A stretch of 49,640 nt of DNA from a virus (IMGVR_UViG_2718218452_000011), one strand, 5' to 3'; shown: positions 18,596-49,640, numbered from the stretch's first letter. Program-made: numbers and translations. The notes: generated from the letters alone by a model not told the origin.

Positions 18596-18988
18596 ATGTC
18601 TGAACCCTTATCCGGTTCCGGTACGGCTGTGGCGCTCGGCGGGGCGACGGTATTCGGGCTGTTTACCGGAACGGATTTCGGGATTGTGTTTGGTGCGTTC
18701 GCCGGGGCGTTATTTGTGGCAACGATGCCGCAGGCGCTTTCAGCCTGGCGTGTGGCGGCGCATTTTCTGGTGTCGTTCATTATCGGCGTGCTGGGCGCAG
18801 AGGTTCTGGCATCCTGGCTGGTAAAGCATACAGGGTTTGACGGTGCGCCTGTCGACGCACTGTGTGCAGTGCTGGTGTCAGTGGTGTCGGTGAAGATTCT
18901 CTCGTTCATCCACCAGCAGGATATTGCATCACTGGTGTCCGGCCTGTTCTCCCGTCTGCGGGGTGGAGGAGGCGGCAATGTTAAGTAA
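18596..18988 (+). CDS. Putative holin/antiholin-like membrane protein (130 aa)
   Basis: Internal ATG of track ORF 18428..18988; Gly/Ala-rich predicted TM helices; directly upstream of second membrane protein and endolysin. Confidence 0.4.
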   Translation: MSEPLSGSGTAVALGGATVFGLFTGTDFGIVFGAFAGALFVATMPQALSAWRVAAHFLVSFIIGVLGAEVLASWLVKHTGFDGAPVDALCAVLVSVVSVKILSFIHQQDIASLVSGLFSRLRGGGGGNVK

Positions 18989-19253
18989 CCTTCCCGGATT
19001 GCTGAATGTAGCGTTATGCACGGTTATCGTGCTGACGCTCTTTTTTTATCGTCGCCGTGATTCCAGACATAAACCGCTGATGTCATGGCTGGCGTGGCTG
19101 CTGATGCTGCTGTATGCCTTTGCGCCCCTCAGCTATCTGTGTGGTCGCCCGTTAGCAACGGGCTGGCTGGAAGTGTTTTTTAACCTGCTGTTCTGCGTGC
19201 TGGTGATACGCGCACGCGGGAACGTCACAAAAATCTTTCCATTGTTGAGGTGA
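18978..19253 (+). CDS. Putative holin (91 aa, 2-3 TM helices)
   Basis: Internal ATG of track ORF 18924..19253; small hydrophobic protein immediately before the endolysin gene. Confidence 0.45.
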   Translation: MLSNLPGLLNVALCTVIVLTLFFYRRRDSRHKPLMSWLAWLLMLLYAFAPLSYLCGRPLATGWLEVFFNLLFCVLVIRARGNVTKIFPLLR

Positions 19254-19255
19254 AT

Positions 19256-19633
19256 ATGTCGGGTAAATTCAGATTCAGCCGTCGCAGTGAAAAAAATCTG
19301 GAGGGCGTTAAACCACAGCTGGTTGCTGTCGTTCGCCGTGCGCTGGAGCTGACGGAGGTTGATTTCGGTATTACGGAAGGGCTGCGCACGAAAGAACGCC
19401 AGAAACAGCTGGTCGCGGAAGGGAAAAGCCAGACCATGAACAGCCGCCACCTGACCGGTGATGCGGTGGATGTTGTTGCCTGGGTTGGCAGCCAGGTGTC
19501 ATGGGACTGGCCTCTGTACGAGAAAATCGCGCAGGCATTTAAGAAGGCTGCCGCAGAGCTGGGAACTGCCATCGAATGGGGCGGGGACTGGAAAACACTG
19601 AAAGACGGGCCTCACTTTCAGTTGAAACGCTGA
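19256..19633 (+). CDS. Endolysin, peptidase M15 family (L-alanyl-D-glutamate peptidase type)
   Basis: ..GLRTKERQKQLVAEGKSQTMNSRHLTGDAVDVV..DGPHFQL matches M15 peptidase endolysin motifs as recalled; GAGG RBS; follows the holin-like genes. Confidence 0.7.
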   Translation: MSGKFRFSRRSEKNLEGVKPQLVAVVRRALELTEVDFGITEGLRTKERQKQLVAEGKSQTMNSRHLTGDAVDVVAWVGSQVSWDWPLYEKIAQAFKKAAAELGTAIEWGGDWKTLKDGPHFQLKR

Positions 19634-19647
19634 TAACCAGGTGTGTT

Positions 19648-19830
19648 ATGAGCAGAAAACACTGGACACACAGAATGCCGCGAACGGCGGCGAAATGGGC
19701 ACTGGTAGCGATACTGGTGCCTTTTTTCCTGGTGGGATGCGTTAGCCTGGATAAGGCGCGCCAGCTTTTCGATACGGCTTCTCAGGTCTGCGAAATTGTC
19801 GACAATGTTCGGCAGCGTGTGCAGAACTAA
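19648..19830 (+). CDS. Small lipoprotein (60 aa; signal peptide and LVGC lipobox), possible lysis accessory/spanin-like
   Basis: MSRKHWTHRMPRTAAKWALVAILVPFFLVGC...; AGGTG RBS; last gene of the lysis cassette. No separate Rz-like gene recognised. Confidence 0.4.
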   Translation: MSRKHWTHRMPRTAAKWALVAILVPFFLVGCVSLDKARQLFDTASQVCEIVDNVRQRVQN

Positions 19831-19954
19831 TCGCCTGCCAGAGCAGAATATTTTGCTGAAAAATGAAGAGTGCTCCAGCGTCCGGAAAGCATAAAATTCG
19901 GTTATCTAATCTGGTTGATATATGAATGTGGGGGAAGTTCTCCCCCACTAAAAG

Positions 19955-20167
19955 TTAGCCTACCTTACGGTATGGATACACATTCTTTATGAACTGGTGA
20001 AAATACTGGCCTTTTGAACTGGCATTCATAAGCCCCTGATAGATCCTGGATGGAACGCCAGAGTATTGATAGATACCTCCATTGTGAAAGGCTATTTCCA
20101 GTGTGAGAGTTGCTGAATCATACCCAACAGACTGGAGATTTGATGATGAAACATAATTACGAATCAA
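19955..20167 (-). CDS. KTSC-domain protein (70 aa)
   Basis: ..YDSATLTLEIAFHNGGIYQYSGVPSRIYQGLMNASSKGQYFHQFIKNVY.. matches the KTSC domain pattern as recalled; reverse orientation. Confidence 0.55.
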   Translation of the reverse strand: MIRNYVSSSNLQSVGYDSATLTLEIAFHNGGIYQYSGVPSRIYQGLMNASSKGQYFHQFIKNVYPYRKVG

Positions 20168-41421: not shown

Positions 41422-41570
41422 ATCACAGTTTTATGATAAAACTTTTACCTTGGTTTGGAGTGCTGTAGAGAGATATTTTAGGGGGGCGAGTAATTTTCTA
41501 AGCTGGAGCATATTGACATATATTATTTCGGATTTGCAAAATACATATTGTTACCATGGAGGAGACAAGC

Positions 41571-42731
41571 ATGGAAAATTTTGCAAATAAGTTAAAAATA
41601 CACACAGAGCATGTTGCAAAAATGGGGGTGTTTTGTACAACTGAAGAAACGACAAAACAAGCACTCATTATGCCATTACTAGATATTCTTGGTTTTACTC
41701 CGTATGATCCAAGAAAAGTCAAAGCTGAGTATAGTGCTGACTTCCCCGGGGTTAAGGCTAATGAACGGGTTGATTACGCTTTATTTTGTCATGATGTTCC
41801 TGTGATGTTCATTGAGGCGAAATCGTTTTCAGAACAAATTGATAATCACTGCCCACAGCTATCAAGATATTTTAATTCAACACCGGAAGTTACTATATCA
41901 GCCATTACAAATGGTGTTGAATGGCGTTTTTTTACGGATTTGAAACAAAAAAACATAATGGATTCAACGCCGTTTTTAAAAATAAGAATGGATTCTCTAA
42001 CTCACTCCGATATTACACAATTATTTCGTTTTCGTTATGATAAATTCAAACCAGAGGCTTTACGGACACTGGCTGAAGAAAGTGTTTATTTGAATTCATT
42101 TACTAAAACAATCAGTTCTAGTCTTCGTGAAGTTGATCTGGAGTTTGTTCGATATGTTGCTAGTCGTTCAAATATTGAGAGACAACTTAATCAGAGATTT
42201 CTTGAGTTCGTGACTCCATTAGTTAAACAGGCCGTTGAGCGCGCTGTTAGCGCAATGGTGGTTTCCGGGCTATCTACACAACCGGTAGAGCAAACTAAAG
42301 AAAATGATGCAACGGATACACAAGTTAATAACGCCATTGTTGATGAAGAAAACCCCAACATAATAACCACAGCCAAAGAATTGGAGCTATTTGAAAGGGT
42401 AAAACAAATCATACAAACAGAAGATAATATAGAATATAAAGATACTGAGTCATATTTTGGTGTGCTATTGAATGGTAAAACTAATAGATGGCTGTTAAGA
42501 TTTTATGATAAAAAATCTTCATTTATAACTTTACCTATTTCGCTTAGTGAAGTTCAGTTGAATGAAATAAGACGAGCTCGACTTGATACGGATGGTAAAA
42601 GGATACATATAACTAATCCGGAAGATATACTTCGCATATCTGGTTTGATTCTGGATTCATACGAGTATGTTAAAAATGATGATAATTTCCGCCGAGGGTC
42701 CAGAGTGAGCAGTTTAGAAGAGGTTGAATAA
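41571..42731 (+). CDS. HsdR-N/Mrr-like PD-(D/E)XK nuclease-domain protein with uncharacterised 240-aa C-terminal domain; candidate defence gene
   Basis: GGAGGAG RBS 6 nt before ATG 41571; motifs ..ERVDYALF..(16)..VMFIEAKS..Q..Y...TNGVEWRFF fit the type I R-subunit N-terminal nuclease fold; AT-rich, own promoter-like sequence and terminator; inserted between baseplate W-like and J-like genes. Confidence 0.6.
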   Translation: MENFANKLKIHTEHVAKMGVFCTTEETTKQALIMPLLDILGFTPYDPRKVKAEYSADFPGVKANERVDYALFCHDVPVMFIEAKSFSEQIDNHCPQLSRYFNSTPEVTISAITNGVEWRFFTDLKQKNIMDSTPFLKIRMDSLTHSDITQLFRFRYDKFKPEALRTLAEESVYLNSFTKTISSSLREVDLEFVRYVASRSNIERQLNQRFLEFVTPLVKQAVERAVSAMVVSGLSTQPVEQTKENDATDTQVNNAIVDEENPNIITTAKELELFERVKQIIQTEDNIEYKDTESYFGVLLNGKTNRWLLRFYDKKSSFITLPISLSEVQLNEIRRARLDTDGKRIHITNPEDILRISGLILDSYEYVKNDDNFRRGSRVSSLEEVE

Positions 42732-42759: not shown

Positions 42760-42771
42760 AATGGAGTAAAT

Positions 42772-43998
42772 ATGTCAGAAATACCAATTACTATGACCAG
42801 TGCGGGGGCGCAGCCTACGCCACCCAATGATTTGCTTGCAGATCTTATCATCAGAGTTGCTGAAAAAGTACCTGGATATACAGCCAACCTTCCGGCGGGG
42901 CTTATTACTGACCTTGCCAGCACGGCAGTCGGGGCGCTGGCATTAATAGACCAGGCGCGGGTGGACCTTATTAACTCCGTAAGCCCATACGGCGCAAATA
43001 TTCCGTTATTGATGCAACTCGGAAACATTTATGGAGCACAGAAGGGATTAAGTACAAATACGGCGGTATACGTGGTGTTTGAGGCGTTGCCGGGGTTTGG
43101 TATCCCTAAAGGATTTGTTGTCGGTGACGGCAACTACCAGTATGCAGTTTCCCGCGATACGGTGGTGCCGGAAAGCGGGCAGACTGAGCCAGTCTACTGT
43201 GTGGCCACAACGTCAGGCTCATGGGCTGTACCGGAAGGAACCGTAACGCAGGTCATTACATCGGTACCCAAAGATCAGCCTGTAAAATGCACGAACCTTA
43301 CCGCAGGGATGCCAGGTCAGGAGGCGCAAACGTGGGCATCTTACCGCGCCGAAGTCATGGAGTCCGGCATGTTTGGTGTGCAGGGAACACCGGATTGCTT
43401 TAAAGCGATGCTCAAATCAGTAAGCGGTGTGCGAGAAAACCTGATTTCTTTCCGGCAGTCGTCGCTGGGGAAATGGGTTGCGGTTGTTGGTGGCGGTGAT
43501 CCGTATGATGTGGCTTATGCTATTTACAAATCTGTACCGGATATTTCGAAACTGACCAACGATGTTAGCAATCCATCTGGTGCGGCAGTGGAAAAACGCA
43601 CGGTTTCAATAACCGTTTCGCCAGATGTTTATCAGGTGCCGTTCGTTATCCCGTCATCACAAAACGTCATGGTGCTAATCACCTGGAACACTGTATCTGA
43701 TGATTATGTTGATCCGGCGGGTATTGCTATGGCTGTGCAGCAAAACGTTGCTGATTACATCAATTCTATTGAAGTCGGACACCCGATAAATCTGCTGCGA
43801 ATCCAGGATATTTTTACCAGTTCCGTCAGATTGTTGGTTGATGCGACGTTGATCTCAACAATCAGTGTGAGCATTGGCATTAATGGCCATATTGTTCCTC
43901 CGGCAAAAGACACAAGCCTGGTTTATGGCGATACCTATTCCTATTTTTCGACGGTGGCATCACAGGTTCAAGTTAACAAGTATGCAATATCTGACTGA
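42772..43998 (+). CDS. Baseplate J-like protein (408 aa)
   Basis: Size and position after the W-like gene, followed by I-like and fibre genes (P2/Mu order). Confidence 0.55.
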   Translation: MSEIPITMTSAGAQPTPPNDLLADLIIRVAEKVPGYTANLPAGLITDLASTAVGALALIDQARVDLINSVSPYGANIPLLMQLGNIYGAQKGLSTNTAVYVVFEALPGFGIPKGFVVGDGNYQYAVSRDTVVPESGQTEPVYCVATTSGSWAVPEGTVTQVITSVPKDQPVKCTNLTAGMPGQEAQTWASYRAEVMESGMFGVQGTPDCFKAMLKSVSGVRENLISFRQSSLGKWVAVVGGGDPYDVAYAIYKSVPDISKLTNDVSNPSGAAVEKRTVSITVSPDVYQVPFVIPSSQNVMVLITWNTVSDDYVDPAGIAMAVQQNVADYINSIEVGHPINLLRIQDIFTSSVRLLVDATLISTISVSIGINGHIVPPAKDTSLVYGDTYSYFSTVASQVQVNKYAISD

Positions 43999-44608
43999 AA
44001 AAATTCTCCCTGCTTATCCGTTTGTGCAGTACAGAGATGATCCGAATGTTGTTGCGTTCTTTGATGCATACAATGAAATTGCTCAGGAATACCTCGATTC
44101 ACTCAACAATCTGGCATTGCCATGCTGGACATCGGAATCAATAACCGGGCAATTGCTGGACTGGATTGCTCTCGGGATTTATGGCGTTGAAAGGCCTTTA
44201 CTACAGGTTTCCGAGGAGGCTATTGCACGCGGCGCATACGATACCATTGAATACAATACAATCCCTTATGCGGCAATGCGGAATTATGTTCCGGGGCAGG
44301 CATCGTATGTTCCGGATGATTATTTCAAGCGAATATTAACTTGGAATTTTTATAAGGCTGACGGTTCGCATTTCTGCATTGACTGGTTAAAGCGCCGTGT
44401 GGCACGGTTCATTCATGGGAAAAACGGAATAGACCCGCCGTTGCAGCACACTTTTGATGTGAGCGTGACTGTATCGGACAGTGTTTTTTCTATTCAGATA
44501 CCAGAATATGGTGATGGTATAGGCTATTTTCTGAAAGATGCCATTGACCAGAAATATGTAAAACTCCCTTTTATTTATTCCTATGCAACAACGGTGATTC
44601 AAAAATGA
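43982..44608 (+). CDS. Tail protein I-like (DUF2313-type), 208 aa
   Basis: Internal ATG of track ORF 43874..44608 overlapping the J-like stop by 17 nt; position before the tail fibre. Confidence 0.45.
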   Translation: MQYLTEKILPAYPFVQYRDDPNVVAFFDAYNEIAQEYLDSLNNLALPCWTSESITGQLLDWIALGIYGVERPLLQVSEEAIARGAYDTIEYNTIPYAAMRNYVPGQASYVPDDYFKRILTWNFYKADGSHFCIDWLKRRVARFIHGKNGIDPPLQHTFDVSVTVSDSVFSIQIPEYGDGIGYFLKDAIDQKYVKLPFIYSYATTVIQK

Positions 44609-46158
44609 TTCTTGGATTCGGAAATAACGTTGTTTCAGCACTGGCTGGTGATATTACGACGATTCAGACTGATATTCCGGTGATGCCGGGCACGGGAGCT
44701 AAATTTGCAAAATTGCTTTCTGCCGATTTTGAAAATAAATCGAACGGGCAACGCGTCTATGCAAAAATTACGCTTACCGATAATAAAGAGTCTGCATTTG
44801 AGATTTGTCACCTGGTATCGGTAAGCGGTGATGTGCTGAAAGTTATTCGTGGGCAGGAAGGAACAACCGCGAAAGGTTGGTCCCTTAATGACGTTGTGGC
44901 TAACTTTGCCACGCGTGGGTCGGAAAACCATTTCGTACAGATTGCGCAGCTTCAGAGCGGTCATTATATTGCGGGTGTTGCTGGTGGCACTGCAAACACA
45001 CTGACGCTGGAACTTCCCTCGACGTTTTTTGTTAATGAGGGTACAGATTGGACGCTACGAACCCCGATTATCGTTTTCCCCGTTCAGAACAATACCAACG
45101 CGGCGACACTTCAACTAACACTAGGCGGAAAGGTTCTTGGTACGTTCCCACTTTATAAGGGGAACAAGTCCGAGCTGGTGGCGAATGATATCATTAAGGG
45201 TATTCCTTTGATTTGCCTTCTTGATAGCGAGAAAAGCTATTTCAGCGTGATAAACCCCGGCAATATCTATTCAGATTTTGATCTGCGATATGTAAAAAAA
45301 TCTGGTGATTTGATGACCGGGGAGCTGAAAATCCGTGGTTTTAATGCGCTGAGGATTTTCAACGAAGCCTTTGGTCTGATTTTTCGTCGTTCGGAAGAGT
45401 GCCTGCATCTCATTCCTACCAGGGAAAATCAGGGCGAAAACGGCGATATTGGTCCACTTCGCCCGTTCACTATTAATCTGCGGACGGGCGAAATATCCAT
45501 GTCGCATAAAGTGTCTGTTGGCGGTGGTTCGCAGGTCAATGGTGCGCTGGGTATCGGCGTTCAGAACGCGCTGGGCGGAAACTCAATTGCTTTCGGGGAT
45601 AACGATACGGGTATAAAACAAAACGGCGACGGCATTCTGGATGTTTATGCGAATGGACAGCATGTATTTCGTTTCCAGAATGGTGTGGCGATAGCGTTAA
45701 AAAATATTCAGGCCGGAAATGCTAAAAAATTCACGTTATCCAGCGCCAACAACTCCACGAAAAACGCAACGTTTAATTTATGGGGTAATTCATCCCGACC
45801 TGTAGTTGCAGAGCTTGGTGATGATTCCGGCTGGCATTTTTACAGCCAGAGAAATACGGATAACAGTATAACGTTCGCTGTAAACGGGAAGATGGTTCCA
45901 TCAAACTACGGAAACTTTGATGCCCGTTACCAGCAGCGAAATGGCGGCGTGCAGGATGTGCGTTATGGCTCCGAAATGTTTTATAACCCGGGAGGTAACG
46001 AAAAATCCTGGACATTTCGCTCACCTTCAGGCCACGGATTATCCGGTATTAATGTGCAGGATACCGGAAAAAATTCAGCAGATAACATCGGCGGCGTGTA
46101 TTACCGACCGCTTCAGAAACTGATTAACGGCACCTGGTATAACGTGGCGAGTGTTTAA
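44605..46158 (+). CDS. Tail fibre protein (P2 gpH-like position, 517 aa)
   Basis: Gly/Asn/Ser-rich C-terminal region typical of fibre receptor-binding tips; followed by a chaperone gene. Confidence 0.55.
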   Translation: MILGFGNNVVSALAGDITTIQTDIPVMPGTGAKFAKLLSADFENKSNGQRVYAKITLTDNKESAFEICHLVSVSGDVLKVIRGQEGTTAKGWSLNDVVANFATRGSENHFVQIAQLQSGHYIAGVAGGTANTLTLELPSTFFVNEGTDWTLRTPIIVFPVQNNTNAATLQLTLGGKVLGTFPLYKGNKSELVANDIIKGIPLICLLDSEKSYFSVINPGNIYSDFDLRYVKKSGDLMTGELKIRGFNALRIFNEAFGLIFRRSEECLHLIPTRENQGENGDIGPLRPFTINLRTGEISMSHKVSVGGGSQVNGALGIGVQNALGGNSIAFGDNDTGIKQNGDGILDVYANGQHVFRFQNGVAIALKNIQAGNAKKFTLSSANNSTKNATFNLWGNSSRPVVAELGDDSGWHFYSQRNTDNSITFAVNGKMVPSNYGNFDARYQQRNGGVQDVRYGSEMFYNPGGNEKSWTFRSPSGHGLSGINVQDTGKNSADNIGGVYYRPLQKLINGTWYNVASV

Positions 46159-46160
46159 CA

Positions 46161-46706
46161 ATGTTGCATTTAAAAAATATTACTGCAGGCAATCCGAAAA
46201 CCGCAGAACAATATCAGATGACAAAACAACATGGTATCACCTGGCTTTTTTCGGAAGATGACAAAAACTGGTATGAAGAGCTGAAAAATTTTGCCAGTGA
46301 CACCATAAAAATGGTTTACACCGGAGACGGGCGCGTGGTGTGGGTCGGTAAGGATGTGACAGGCATTGAACCCCGTAACGCCAGTGTAATTGAAGTTCCT
46401 GATATTACCGCTAACCGCCGTATTACCGTGCCTGGTTACTGGTTTTACCGCGACGATAAATTTGTCTTCGACTACAAACTTAAAGCGAAAGATGAGCGTG
46501 ATGCCCTGTTACAACAGGCCAGCATCATGACCAGCGAATGGGAAAAAGACCTGCTGCTGGGATTAATCAGTGACGAAGACAGGGAGAGGCTGAAAGCGTA
46601 CCGCATTTACGCGAAATCGCTGCAGGCGATGGATTTCAACATTATCACTGATAAAACCTCATATAACGCCATTGAATGGCCCGTCTCTCCGGAAGCCTCT
46701 TCCTGA
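46161..46706 (+). CDS. Tail fibre assembly chaperone (181 aa)
   Basis: Position immediately downstream of the fibre gene; size typical of Tfa/gpG chaperones. Confidence 0.5.
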   Translation: MLHLKNITAGNPKTAEQYQMTKQHGITWLFSEDDKNWYEELKNFASDTIKMVYTGDGRVVWVGKDVTGIEPRNASVIEVPDITANRRITVPGYWFYRDDKFVFDYKLKAKDERDALLQQASIMTSEWEKDLLLGLISDEDRERLKAYRIYAKSLQAMDFNIITDKTSYNAIEWPVSPEASS

Positions 46707-46729
46707 TTTAATTTATCGCGAGAAAAACT

Positions 46730-48163
46730 ATGTCTGTAGTGATATCAGGTGCGCTGATTGATGGCGCAGGCATCCCCATGTCCGGATGCCACATAATTCT
46801 GAAATCCCGGGTAAACACCTCAGAAGTGGTGATGCGCACAGTTGCTGATGTGGTAACGGGCGCTGACGGTGAATATTCATTTGAAGCACAGACCGGGAAA
46901 TACTGCGTATATCTGAAACAGGACTGGCGCGACGAGTACTGTGTTGGCGATATTGCTGTATACGATGACTCAAAGCCTGGCACGTTGAACGACTTTCTGA
47001 CCGCTCTCGATGAAGGCGATCTTAAACCGGATGTTGTGAAACGTTTTGAGGAAATGGTGGGGCAGGCGCAGCAGAGTGCGGAAGCCGCCGCCGGAAGTGC
47101 GCAGGAAGCAGGGAAGCACGCTGCCAGCATCGAAGAAGCTAAAGAGCGTGTTGAAACGCTGGCCGGGGAGGTTAAGCAGAACGCTGATGCTGTTGCGAAA
47201 GACAAGCGGCAGGTCGAAACCCTGGCATCACAGGTTGAGGGTACCGCCTCAGTAGTCAGACAGGATGCGGAAGCGGCAAAAAAAGCCGCATCCGATGCAG
47301 AACAAGCCAGGGATGATATTGAAACCGCGTTATCTGCGACACTCAAAACTGCTAATCACCTGTCTGAAATTGCCGCAGCAGGTCAGAATGCTCTGCAGGA
47401 ATCACGCTATAATCTGGGATTAAAAGACGCAGCCACAATGGATGTGCAGAGCAGCATTTACGACCGGACTGAAGGCCGAGTAGCAATACCGGGGACTTTA
47501 GGATATGGGGCGTATTACCGGACTAAAAAGACATTCAGCGCACAGAATGGCCCTGCAGAATTTCTGTCCTGGGTGCAAGAAACTCCGCCTGGTAAATATG
47601 CAGTTACTCAGAATGGCGGTGCAAATTATAAACCGATTATAAATGGAACTACTAACTTTACTGGAATTATCGAAATACAAATACTTGATGTATTAGATGA
47701 TGATAGCAATCAAAAAAATAAAGATAAGAAGCTGACCTTCGAGAATGTTAATGGCGAAACCTATTCGTGTATGATGCGCGCGGTATCCAGCGCGGCTTTT
47801 CTGACTGACTGGATAAATGAAAGTCTGCAGGCTGGTGATGTTCTCAGCGTTCTTTTATCTAAAACAAATACGTACGGCGACCCTGGGCTGAATGGACTCA
47901 TCCTCGCAGCTTACCAGGGAAATGCTGACAATGACGCGTATATCACTCTTACGAGAGGGGCTTCATACTCTGGCTCATCATTAACGGTTGTATCAATTTC
48001 CGTACTGAACAACAGAAACAATAAAGCCACTTCCACGCCTACAGTTACGACTCGTGGATGTCGGGGATGGAGTTTGCCGGGAGTTTATACAGCACTAAGT
48101 GGGGCCGCCGGCAATGCTACTGGTGATAAAGCGATTATTGGTCTTTTTATGCGAGTGAGGTAA
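46730..48163 (+). CDS. Side tail fibre protein (lambda Stf / Rac StfR-like N-terminus), 477 aa
   Basis: N-terminus MSVVISGALIDGAGIPMSGCHIILKSRVNTSEVV...YDDSKPGTLNDFL resembles the conserved prophage tail-fibre N-terminal domain as recalled; Ala/Glu-rich coiled region follows. Confidence 0.65.
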   Translation: MSVVISGALIDGAGIPMSGCHIILKSRVNTSEVVMRTVADVVTGADGEYSFEAQTGKYCVYLKQDWRDEYCVGDIAVYDDSKPGTLNDFLTALDEGDLKPDVVKRFEEMVGQAQQSAEAAAGSAQEAGKHAASIEEAKERVETLAGEVKQNADAVAKDKRQVETLASQVEGTASVVRQDAEAAKKAASDAEQARDDIETALSATLKTANHLSEIAAAGQNALQESRYNLGLKDAATMDVQSSIYDRTEGRVAIPGTLGYGAYYRTKKTFSAQNGPAEFLSWVQETPPGKYAVTQNGGANYKPIINGTTNFTGIIEIQILDVLDDDSNQKNKDKKLTFENVNGETYSCMMRAVSSAAFLTDWINESLQAGDVLSVLLSKTNTYGDPGLNGLILAAYQGNADNDAYITLTRGASYSGSSLTVVSISVLNNRNNKATSTPTVTTRGCRGWSLPGVYTALSGAAGNATGDKAIIGLFMRVR

Positions 48164-48732
48164 TGATGTCGGAGATTGCTGCTATCAGGAATGCACGGTA
48201 TCTGGAAAATGGCGCGGTTGACTGCGAGGTTTTGTTCAGTGACCTTCCGAATTTTCTCCCCTATACAGCAACCAGTACCGATTCTGCCGAAACAGGACGT
48301 CGGGTGTGGCAAGAACTACAAAGCGGGAGATGGGGTGAGATTACCCCGTTCGTCGTTACACCAGAACTGCTGGAGGCCGTAAAAGCAGCCAAACGTCAGG
48401 AAATAGAAGAATGGCGTACAGAGCAGGAGGCGCAGCCATTTATTTTTGAATATAACGGTCGCACCTGGAACGCTGGCCCCGACTCAATGGCTCGTCTTTA
48501 TCCGGCAGTAATGGCATCAAAGTCTGAAACAGCGCGAAAAACCATGGTATGGAGCGATGCGGAAAACCAGCAGGTGAAGCTGTCAATGCCGGAACTGGAA
48601 GAACTGGCAGCAGCAATGGCGCAGGCTGTTGTTGAACGCAATGACGAGATTTATCGCCGTCAGCGAGAGAAGAAAGAAGCGTTAGACACTCTGGAGGATT
48701 TAGATGCGATACGAGCATTTAATGTTGAGTAA
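48163..48732 (+). CDS. Tail fibre assembly protein (Tfa-like, 189 aa)
   Basis: ATGA-coupled to the Stf-like gene; sequence type typical of lambdoid Tfa (from memory). Confidence 0.65.
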   Translation: MMSEIAAIRNARYLENGAVDCEVLFSDLPNFLPYTATSTDSAETGRRVWQELQSGRWGEITPFVVTPELLEAVKAAKRQEIEEWRTEQEAQPFIFEYNGRTWNAGPDSMARLYPAVMASKSETARKTMVWSDAENQQVKLSMPELEELAAAMAQAVVERNDEIYRRQREKKEALDTLEDLDAIRAFNVE

Positions 48733-48904
48733 CGAATAGGTCGCAGTGAGTTGTTCTGGTATCTGAAGAATGAGGCTCCGGTTGCTGGCTGCAGTCGGAG
48801 GTTTATGATGTGTACTCTCACATTGTTGAAGAAATCAATTGCGCAATTGGAGAGCAGGAACGTAAGAAAACAAGAGAAAGTCTACAATCGCTTGTAGGGT
48901 GTCA

Positions 48905-48945
48905 CTTCTTGATTTTTGCATAAATTTTATGATAAAATCATGAAG
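48905..48945 (+). promoter_or_regulatory. Candidate sigma-70 promoter for the terminal cargo gene
   Basis: TTGATT..(about 18 bp)..TAAAAT in an AT-rich spacer; a perfect 14-bp palindrome CAATTGCGCAATTG lies about 60 bp upstream (about 48836..48849). Confidence 0.3.
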
Positions 48946-48968
48946 TAAAAGTGATGGGAGAAACTTTC

Positions 48969-49640
48969 ATGAATATGCCTCATTGTGTTCTGCATACAGG
49001 AATTGATTCGGATTTTGTACTTAGTAAACTGGGCTTTACAGAAAATGATATTCGCGATGCGTTAATGTCTGCTTTATACGAGCGACGCAAATCCAGTAAG
49101 CTCCACCCTAAAGTGGATGCTGGATTCCGCTTTTGGAGTGAGATGGTTGCCGCGCTTCGCCGTATTCTGATTGGTAAGGGTAACGGCTGGTCTTCTGAAG
49201 TAGTCAATCGCATGGAAATGGTCGTTAATTCAAGCAAAGGGGTTAATCTGATTATTACCTCAGGTGACGGACATACCGGGCGTCCTGATGGATTGCCTAA
49301 AACCAAAAATGCAAAGGGAGAGGCAACTCGCTCGATTGTTCACAACAATCCGGGTACATTTGATATGTTCCAAGCAGATACCTTACATTCAGGCAAAGCT
49401 GAGATCACGCCGATAGATAGCACCCGAACTTATATCGTTCTGTATTATTATGATGCGGCAAATAAAGAAATTCGCTGTGAGGTATCGTATCCGGTAGGGA
49501 TGGTGAATCAGGACGGATTTGCCAGAGTAAGCGCGTGGAGTGAGCGAATTATTTTAGCTCCTCTGCAATTTGAAGGTGCGGATATTTTCCCTGAACAGGA
49601 TTTTGATGATGACATATCAATTTCAGTTGAAAGCAAATGA
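48969..49640 (+). CDS. Hypothetical 224-aa protein of unknown function (cargo gene at the fibre-distal end)
   Basis: Track ORF 48951..49640; GGGAGA RBS before ATG 48969; AT-rich relative to the tail genes; no recognised domain. Stop codon coincides with the window end. Confidence 0.45.
   Translation: MNMPHCVLHTGIDSDFVLSKLGFTENDIRDALMSALYERRKSSKLHPKVDAGFRFWSEMVAALRRILIGKGNGWSSEVVNRMEMVVNSSKGVNLIITSGDGHTGRPDGLPKTKNAKGEATRSIVHNNPGTFDMFQADTLHSGKAEITPIDSTRTYIVLYYYDAANKEIRCEVSYPVGMVNQDGFARVSAWSERIILAPLQFEGADIFPEQDFDDDISISVESK

Follow-up and report, generated by a model that had tools for sequence, protein, structure and literature searches.

The viral stretch IMGVR_UViG_2718218452_000011 (49,640 nt in total, called here the window) carries near its 3' end two consecutive tail fibre/chaperone gene pairs of different ancestry. 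In our reading, to which we give a probability of about 0.6, the late operon of an intact contractile-tail prophage at the Rac site ends here in two independent receptor-binding modules, which are co-transcribed and probably both present in the virion. Module 1 would be the primary, contraction-triggering baseplate fibre, with a wedge-specific N-terminal part of ~236 aa, a Mu S-like tip and, as its chaperone, a Caudo_TAP protein resembling Mu U. Module 2 would be an accessory side fibre of lambda Stf-like build: a 94-aa anchor is followed by a linker, a helical shaft and an exchangeable binding domain at the C-terminus, and DUF4376 would be its chaperone. By providing or accelerating reversible adsorption to a second receptor, this fibre would broaden the host range.

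The window was 100% identical to the chromosome of Escherichia coli strain C7 (cow; NZ_CP010240.1), and it is a full-length prophage at the Rac integration site of this strain. On the C7 chromosome, the gene for chaperone 2 was followed by two more prophage genes, and then by the host genes uspF, ompN and nifJ.

Gene layout and ancestry of the two cassettes

Four open reading frames (ORFs) on the plus strand form the two cassettes: fibre 1 (44605-46158, 517 aa), chaperone 1 (46161-46706, 181 aa), fibre 2 (46730-48163, 477 aa) and chaperone 2 (48163-48732, 189 aa). All four gave family matches far from chance. The two cassettes were recovered at exactly the coordinates given by the original prediction and are complete, and their different ancestry was recovered too, fibre 1 and its chaperone being Mu S/U-like and fibre 2 combining PF08400 with DUF4376. 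Fibre 1 started inside the wedge gene before it, with a 4-nt overlap, and the following junctions were a 2-nt gap, a 23-nt gap and a 1-nt overlap. Because the junctions are so tight, we read the four genes as one operon. The features of the region were as follows, all on the plus strand.

42772-43998, +, baseplate wedge protein of the J/gp47 family (PF04865, E 7e-8; phrog_6 baseplate wedge, E 1e-37)
43982-44608, +, second wedge protein, at the P2 gpI position, 208 aa (phrog_8212, E 2e-119)
44605-45312, +, fibre 1, N-terminal ~236 aa, tail-type-specific and putatively baseplate-docking (phrog_25419; no PF12571 match)
45313-45683, +, fibre 1, conserved shaft island, aa ~237-360 (aligns with Mu S residues 267-366)
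45684-46158, +, fibre 1, variable distal tip, putative receptor-binding end, Mu S-like (Mu S 414-503, E 8e-11; short tail fibre of phiTE 478-552, E 3e-15)
46161-46706, +, tail fibre assembly protein (Tfa; chaperone 1), Caudo_TAP, Mu U-like (PF02413, E 8e-23; Mu U, 5yvq_B, E 7e-38)
46730-47011, +, fibre 2, N-terminal collar/anchor domain, aa 1-94 (PF08400, E 5.5e-62; 9e7m_Ta, E 1.6e-17)
47012-47425, +, fibre 2, linker and Ala/Glu/Gln-rich helical, coiled-coil-like shaft, aa ~95-232 (helix in the AlphaFold2 model; aligns with the XM1 gp40 coiled coil)
47426-48163, +, fibre 2, variable C-terminal region, putatively receptor-binding, aa ~233-477 (31-39% identity to phage records)
48163-48732, +, putative DUF4376-type chaperone for fibre 2 (chaperone 2; PF14301, E 2.9e-17, 63.5 bits; phrog_1141)
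48776-48800, +, terminator-like hairpin closing the late (fibre) operon (10-bp stem with 6 GC pairs)

Fibre 1 matched PHROG tail fibre families with E ~1e-120. The J/gp47 wedge protein defines the contractile-tail baseplate to which it belongs, and the window encoded, besides this PF04865 protein, a sheath (phrog_205) and a hub. The gene order of J-type wedge, I-type wedge, fibre and Caudo_TAP was that of the Mu S/U or P2 H/G baseplate fibre module. The second wedge protein (from here on the I protein) served as a marker of this tail type; it was conserved at 100% to 62% identity in 80 IMG/VR loci and co-varied with J and with the fibre 1 N-terminus. The E. coli-type set comprised 53 IMG/VR loci, with an I protein at least 91% identical, and 45 of them reached far enough to be judged. 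Across all E. coli-type relatives, the N-terminal ~236 aa of fibre 1 were 97-100% identical, and they were 59-75% identical where the I protein was 62-83% identical. Because the two identities fall together, this part of fibre 1 is expected to be the one that docks on the baseplate.

From aa ~237 on, fibre 1 resembled Mu S (PDB 5yvq_A, E 9e-14; residues 416-516 aligned with Mu S 414-503), and also the tip of the short tail fibre of phiTE (9cuy_c, E 2.5e-15). Cassette 1 is thus like Mu S and U in having a fibre behind J- and I-type wedge genes, a Mu S tip and a Mu U chaperone, as it is like P2 H/G in position. It is unlike both Mu S and P2 gpH in its unrelated N-terminal 236 aa, and it comes without an invertible segment or invertase. 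Of the claim that this is a fibre in the P2 gpH position with its chaperone, the position and the Caudo_TAP chaperone stood; the P2 gpH-type domain PF12571 was not found in fibre 1 by Pfam search, and the tip and chaperone are those of Mu. PF12571 was present in a P2-like relative (L129, E 2e-34).

In fibre 2, the PF08400 match spanned 1-131 of the 134 profile positions, so that the domain is complete. Its anchor matched the solved collar domain of lambda Stf (9e7m_Ta), and residues 1-280 matched the "collar spike" gp40 of the Vibrio myophage XM1 (7kjk; phmmer E 4.8e-9). The AlphaFold2 model of residues 1-130 was a beta-sandwich followed by a helix from residue 100 (100-128). With this model, Foldseek gave only two matches in the PDB at E ≤ 0.001, the lambda Stf collar (4e-6; TM 0.72 normalised to the target) and XM1 gp40 (1.8e-5; 130 aligned columns). 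Neither cassette is a fragment, since the N-terminal domain co-varying with the wedge genes is present in fibre 1 and the full PF08400 in fibre 2.

Relatives of the C-terminal 245 aa of fibre 2 were only 31-39% identical. They came from the same phages that hold the closest DUF4376 homologues: phiP27, Rac-SA53, the lambdoid SerU-LTIIb, Av-05 and vB_EcoM_TH18-like Escherichia phages. The AlphaFold2 model of this region (predicted local distance difference test, pLDDT, 75) gave no PDB match in Foldseek at E ≤ 0.001. The alignment of the C-terminal domains, suggested by the original prediction, matched the fibre 1 tip to Mu S and the phiTE short tail fibre and gave no fold for fibre 2. The gp37-like tip of lambda Stf and StfR was not found in fibre 2, and BLASTP to StfR aligned residues 1-121 only.

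Chaperone 2 scored well above the PF14301 cut-off of 25 bits; Caudo_TAP was not matched by Pfam search, and BLASTP gave no similarity to TfaR. Its C-terminus (48307-48701) was conserved and its N-terminus variable, the latter varying along with the fibre tip. DUF4376 proteins have been established by experiment as a distinct type of intermolecular fibre chaperone in the Alteromonas phages V22 and A5 (PMC7289586, PMC10579305). Like chaperone 2, V22 gp27 and A5 gp9 belong to this Pfam family, have a similar size and are encoded directly 3' of a fibre gene. They differ in cognate fibre and in host, and for the E. coli DUF4376 protein chaperone activity is a prediction. The folding of fibre 2 by this protein is predicted from its co-variation with the fibre tip and from the co-occurrence in the same phages of the closest homologues of the two.

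Fibre 2 shares with lambda Stf (Ur-lambda) and with StfR of the E. coli K-12 Rac prophage, both paired with a Tfa, a full PF08400 collar, a linker, a helical shaft, the layout of an accessory fibre and a place at the end of the tail operon. It differs in its C-terminus, unrelated to the gp37-like tip, in having DUF4376 instead of Caudo_TAP, and in belonging to a contractile virion, in which the gpV/gpM site is hidden. Its identity was 43% to K-12 StfR and 46% to lambda Stf, over the first ~120 aa only and with nothing elsewhere, whereas the N-termini of K-12 StfR and lambda Stf were 93.5% identical to each other. In the phage database, the only matches to fibre 2 above 60% identity were phiP27, Rac-SA53 and the near-identical record pPE4, all lambdoid matches lying below 60%. 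Because the identities to lambda-type fibres are so low, we consider the fibre 2 anchor to represent a distinct PF08400 subfamily, typically forming a second fibre behind a primary fibre/Tfa pair. Three contractile-tail types had it in this place, as had lambdoid prophages with a lambda-type Stf of their own. The description of the second cassette as a lambda Stf/StfR-like fibre plus Tfa accordingly stood for the complete PF08400, not for the closeness of the anchor or the type of chaperone. Recent capture from a lambdoid prophage was rejected on the same grounds, the low anchor identity and the lack of similarity elsewhere, and the acquisition by recombination that had been proposed is not supported as a recent event.

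Distribution and exchange of the second cassette

The same four-gene order of primary fibre, Caudo_TAP, PF08400 fibre and DUF4376 is annotated in Rac-SA53 (tail1-tail4) and in the Stx2e phage phiP27 (L54-L57), with anchors 91-92% identical to that of fibre 2. The complete baseplate, and the integration site adjoining uspF, are likewise common to Rac-SA53 and the window. The tail of phiP27 is Mu-like and unrelated to that of this prophage, and the only part of the virion module shared with it was the block that starts at fibre 1 aa 230 and runs through DUF4376 (tblastn E ≤ 1e-3); the fibre 1 N-terminal part was not found in phiP27. Both systems differ from the window in their distal tips and in the C-terminal region of fibre 2 (32-35% identical), and Rac-SA53 tail3 has 1061 aa against the 477 aa of fibre 2 here. 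The Tfa was 40% identical in Rac-SA53 and 74% in phiP27.

Within the E. coli-type set, a fibre 2 N-terminus, or at least a trace of it, lay directly 3' of Tfa in 45/45 informative loci. In nine of them the second cassette was degraded: two were truncated, and in the other seven only 33 aa were left, fused towards a partial DUF4376 gene. The 33-codon remnants were in the IMG/VR loci L007, L016, L022, L023, L029, L030 and L035; the partial DUF4376 gene of these deletion variants lay ~250 nt further on, and the remaining tail module was intact. Among more distant relatives, fibre 2 was not found in ~21 informative loci with an I protein 62-79% identical, which had fibre 1 and Tfa only; the exception was L086 (I protein 70%), which carried fibre 2. 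A scan of genome contigs with the wedge protein yielded four loci only. Three Serratia-type genome loci (L165-L167, one of them labelled Sphingomonas) had fibre 1 and Tfa, and fibre 2 was not found in them. Because the Serratia relatives of the tail lack it, the second cassette is an evolutionary add-on to this tail. In Arsenophonus nasoniae, a distant relative of the tail (L168, 10817-12977) had two tandem fibres, both with fibre 1-type N-termini, which is a different route to carrying two fibres.

With the fibre 2 anchor as the seed, an IMG/VR search recovered this anchor at 75-96% identity, placed 3' of a primary fibre and its Tfa in Rac-SA53-type, phiP27-type and P2-like tails. In the P2-like tails (L129 and L117, with Tail_P2_I PF09684, Baseplate_J PF04865 and PF12571) it was 85-92% identical. 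Two lambdoid loci with a gpL-K-I-J-Lom context (L094, 6661-12346; L155, 7049 to the contig end) had a lambda-type Stf followed by a fibre with this anchor type, and thus two tandem PF08400 fibres from different subfamilies. Since the two types occur there in tandem, these loci suggest separate sites on the same virion for the two anchor subfamilies. One branch of relatives (L134 and L135) had a gene for a family-2 glycosyltransferase between Tfa and the second fibre (8867-9865 in L135).

The block of Tfa 3' end and fibre 2 anchor was present in ~232 of 5426 complete E. coli genomes (~4%). The record PP818812.1 (Actinobacillus phage vB_Apl-pPE4) had ~93% DNA identity to this prophage across the baseplate and fibre region; its Actinobacillus host label looks doubtful. 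The architecture is already known and fairly common in E. coli prophages, and what is new here are the tip alleles.

The fibre 2 anchor is under strong purifying selection. Over the first 100 codons of fibre 2 we counted 58 distinct alleles, with a median pairwise ratio of non-synonymous to synonymous divergence (dN/dS) of 0.11 and a mean dS of 0.77, and alleles with identical amino acids over these 100 codons stood behind Rac-type, Mu-like (phiP27-type) and other tails. The fibre 2 ORFs of relatives ranged from 422 to 1061 aa and were mostly intact. In most of them the DUF4376 gene started -3 to +30 nt from the fibre 2 stop, and one class of fibre 2 (465 aa) had a Caudo_TAP chaperone in place of DUF4376.

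DNA comparison with the relatives showed mosaic breakpoints that coincided with domain borders, in the following order.

42764-45683, conserved in relatives: wedge genes, fibre 1 anchor and shaft
45684-about 46553, variable in relatives: fibre 1 tip and Tfa N-terminus
46554-about 47205/47575, conserved in relatives: Tfa C-terminus, spacer, fibre 2 anchor and shaft
47576-48306, variable in relatives: fibre 2 tip and DUF4376 N-terminus
48307-48701, conserved in relatives: DUF4376 C-terminus

DNA identity in the fibre 1 shaft island was 92% to phiP27 L54 and 96% to Rac-SA53, and the island behaves as a recombination boundary; over the fibre 1 tip the identity among relatives collapsed. In the Caudo_TAP chaperone the N-terminal half was variable and the 3' end conserved, the conserved block resuming at 46554. 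The fibre 2 shaft was partly conserved with phiP27, up to 47575. Because the anchor is constrained, the ORFs are mostly intact and exchange is modular, these data argue for fibre 2 being a working, exchangeable module and not a relic. Variation would arise via cassette exchange at the conserved boundary segments, not via DNA inversion.

Placement of the second fibre and competing readings

The anchor may mount the accessory fibre on its own, through a ring-forming N-terminal domain and without a tail-specific adaptor, which would leave the cassette free to move between tail types. Related domains are known from two solved structures. In Ur-lambda, twelve Stf N-domains (four trimers) ring the gpV/gpM junction, where one loop makes sparse contacts with gpV and gpM, and these side fibres speed up adsorption and are dispensable (PMC12617516). 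In XM1, the related N-domain of gp40 binds the neck as six trimers (PMC10457771). A site at the tube tip as in lambda would not be usable here, because in a contractile tail the sheath and baseplate cover the gpV/gpM junction. Our leading guess is a neck collar like that of XM1 gp40; among contractile-tailed phages, gp40 is the one relative of the anchor with a solved structure. The baseplate rim would be the other option. Like the fibre 2 anchor region, gp40 has an Ig-like N-domain (residues 1-126) followed by a trimeric coiled coil. It differs in ending in a tailspike and in having its gene at a distance from those of the baseplate. The candidate neck proteins of the prophage (ORFs at 31285-33590) gave no Pfam or PDB sequence matches, the sheath gave no PDB sequence match, and ten head, neck and tail proteins had no Pfam match. 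Literature on Rac-SA53, vB_Apl-pPE4, 8JOV and PF08400 gave nothing useful on virion composition.

Between the two options of the original prediction, two fibre types on the virion or a cassette acquired from a lambdoid prophage, the evidence favours the first; that fibre 2 is incorporated into the virion we infer from the selection on its gene, and the attachment site and the receptor roles are inferred too. What the data show directly are gene content, homologies, conservation, selection and distribution. Several points weigh against our reading, this indirect route to incorporation among them. The second cassette is lost by deletion or truncation in ~1/5 of the E. coli-type loci, and is thus dispensable. 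XM1 gp40 is a remote relative (24% identity), and its N-domain, at E 0.007, does not reach the PF08400 threshold. Lambda Stf is nearer to the anchor in sequence, and the site at which it docks, the junction of tube and distal tail protein, would lie buried under the sheath in contractile tails. An identical anchor on three tails unrelated in sequence is also hard to reconcile with a specific protein-protein docking site. Such identical anchors fit a ring with sparse, generic contacts, and they fit equally well a docking on Tfa or on the fibre 1 shaft, which are encoded in the shared block.

It is conceivable, though we rate it as rather doubtful, that the anchor subfamily is a universal plug, used by Mu-like, P2-like and Rac-SA53-type contractile tails and by lambdoid tails that also have a lambda-type Stf collar. 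Docking would then have to work whatever the tail type; the candidate modes are a ring closing on itself at the structurally conserved neck or terminator, and attachment to the upstream fibre or Tfa, giving one branched appendage.

The latter is close to the reading of the two cassettes as one branched or serial fibre system, with the fibre 2 anchor docked on the primary fibre or on the Tfa bound to its tip. We regard this as unlikely. The subfamily is almost always directly 3' of a Caudo_TAP gene, and the conserved DNA block extends from the Tfa 3' end over the 23-nt spacer and through the anchor. A docking partner inside the block would explain the portability, phiP27 and this prophage sharing that block only, and Mu Tfa is reported to stay on the fibre tip (cited in PMC10579305). 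Simple linkage also accounts for the adjacency, however. In L094 the fibre 2-type gene stands behind an Stf with an intramolecular S74 chaperone and without Tfa, and in L134 and L135 the glycosyltransferase gene intervenes. The anchor accompanies very different primary tips and Tfa types (Mu U-like and lambda-like), and its two homologues with solved structures are attached to rings of the tail or neck and not to fibres.

Quite improbable is a passenger role for fibre 2, as a lambdoid side-fibre cassette that was derived by recombination and is perhaps expressed, without being assembled on the contractile virion. PF08400 fibres are overwhelmingly siphoviral, and K-12 Rac, with the same attachment site and early genes, has lambdoid remnants ending in stfR-tfaR; the cassette is deleted in some relatives and missing from the Serratia relatives of the tail. 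A passenger of this origin is hard to match with an anchor this far from lambda Stf and K-12 StfR, or with strong purifying selection at near-saturated synonymous divergence. Moreover, the ORFs are intact in most loci, the binding domain and its matched chaperone are actively swapped, and the cassette is kept in three contractile-tail lineages.

Two adjacent, different binding specificities are also the pattern of invertible fibre segments, but that a particle carries either fibre 1 or fibre 2, as in the Mu G-segment or P1 C-segment switch, is very improbable, since each cassette has its own N-terminal anchor, the anchors are of unrelated families and so cannot compete for one socket, and no promoter/terminator pattern beyond chance lay between the cassettes. 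A DNA-inversion switch of the Gin/Cin/Pin type was rejected. The original prediction had seen no invertase in the window, and this held beyond it: no invertase or recombinase was found between the fibres and attR, in the window or downstream to uspF/ompN in the C7 genome. The search for crossover sites gave no meaningful inverted repeats in the region, the sole pair being 17 nt long with 82% complementarity, and both cassettes were on one strand.

Prophage context and biological meaning

The annotation of the C7 genome by the Prokaryotic Genome Annotation Pipeline (PGAP) names the four genes, in order, "phage tail protein", "tail fiber assembly protein", "prophage tail fiber N-terminal domain-containing protein" and "DUF4376 domain-containing protein". 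The protein accessions are WP_077898319.1 for fibre 1 and WP_073519379.1 for fibre 2.

The prophage is a full-length relative, via Rac-SA53, of the cryptic Rac prophage of K-12 (L164). The two have the same integration site, and early genes (recET, kilR and others) are in common via Rac-SA53. K-12 Rac ends in lambdoid tail remnants (a tape-measure fragment, lomR, stfR, tfaR and pinR), where the window has the contractile-tail module.

Between the fibre operon and attR/uspF we found an RmrT/RmrA defence pair, encoded at 48954-49640 and by a gene past the window end (18938-20044 in locus L001). The PADLOC matches had E 1e-59 and 7e-143, and RmrA combined HTH_3 with Peptidase_M78. A promoter-like site (48909-48938) lay upstream of this pair, which is unrelated to the fibres.

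A 391-aa ORF (41556-42731, +) with HSDR_N and HSDR_N_2 domains, a fold like the N-terminal nuclease of type I restriction R-subunits, sat within the baseplate operon, flanked by the gpW-like gene and baseplate J. The ORF had 33-39% GC, against ~48% nearby, and a promoter-like site was located at 41513-41542. PADLOC gave no match for this ORF. Rac-SA53 has an antirepressor and two hypothetical genes at the same spot, on the opposite strand, and because of these different genes the position looks like an insertion hot spot for morons.

For this window, the finding is an ordinary one. Its wider interest lies only in the mounting of a lambda Stf-type anchor on three unrelated contractile-tail lineages. 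Tail fibres decide which bacteria can be infected, and with a self-anchoring, exchangeable second cassette a phage could widen or shift its host range by simple means. This matters for toxin-carrying prophages, as phiP27 carries Stx2e and Rac-SA53 carries LT-IIa. Should the anchor really function on tails of unrelated types, it would offer a ready-made means of fitting engineered phages or tailocins with new receptor-binding fibres.

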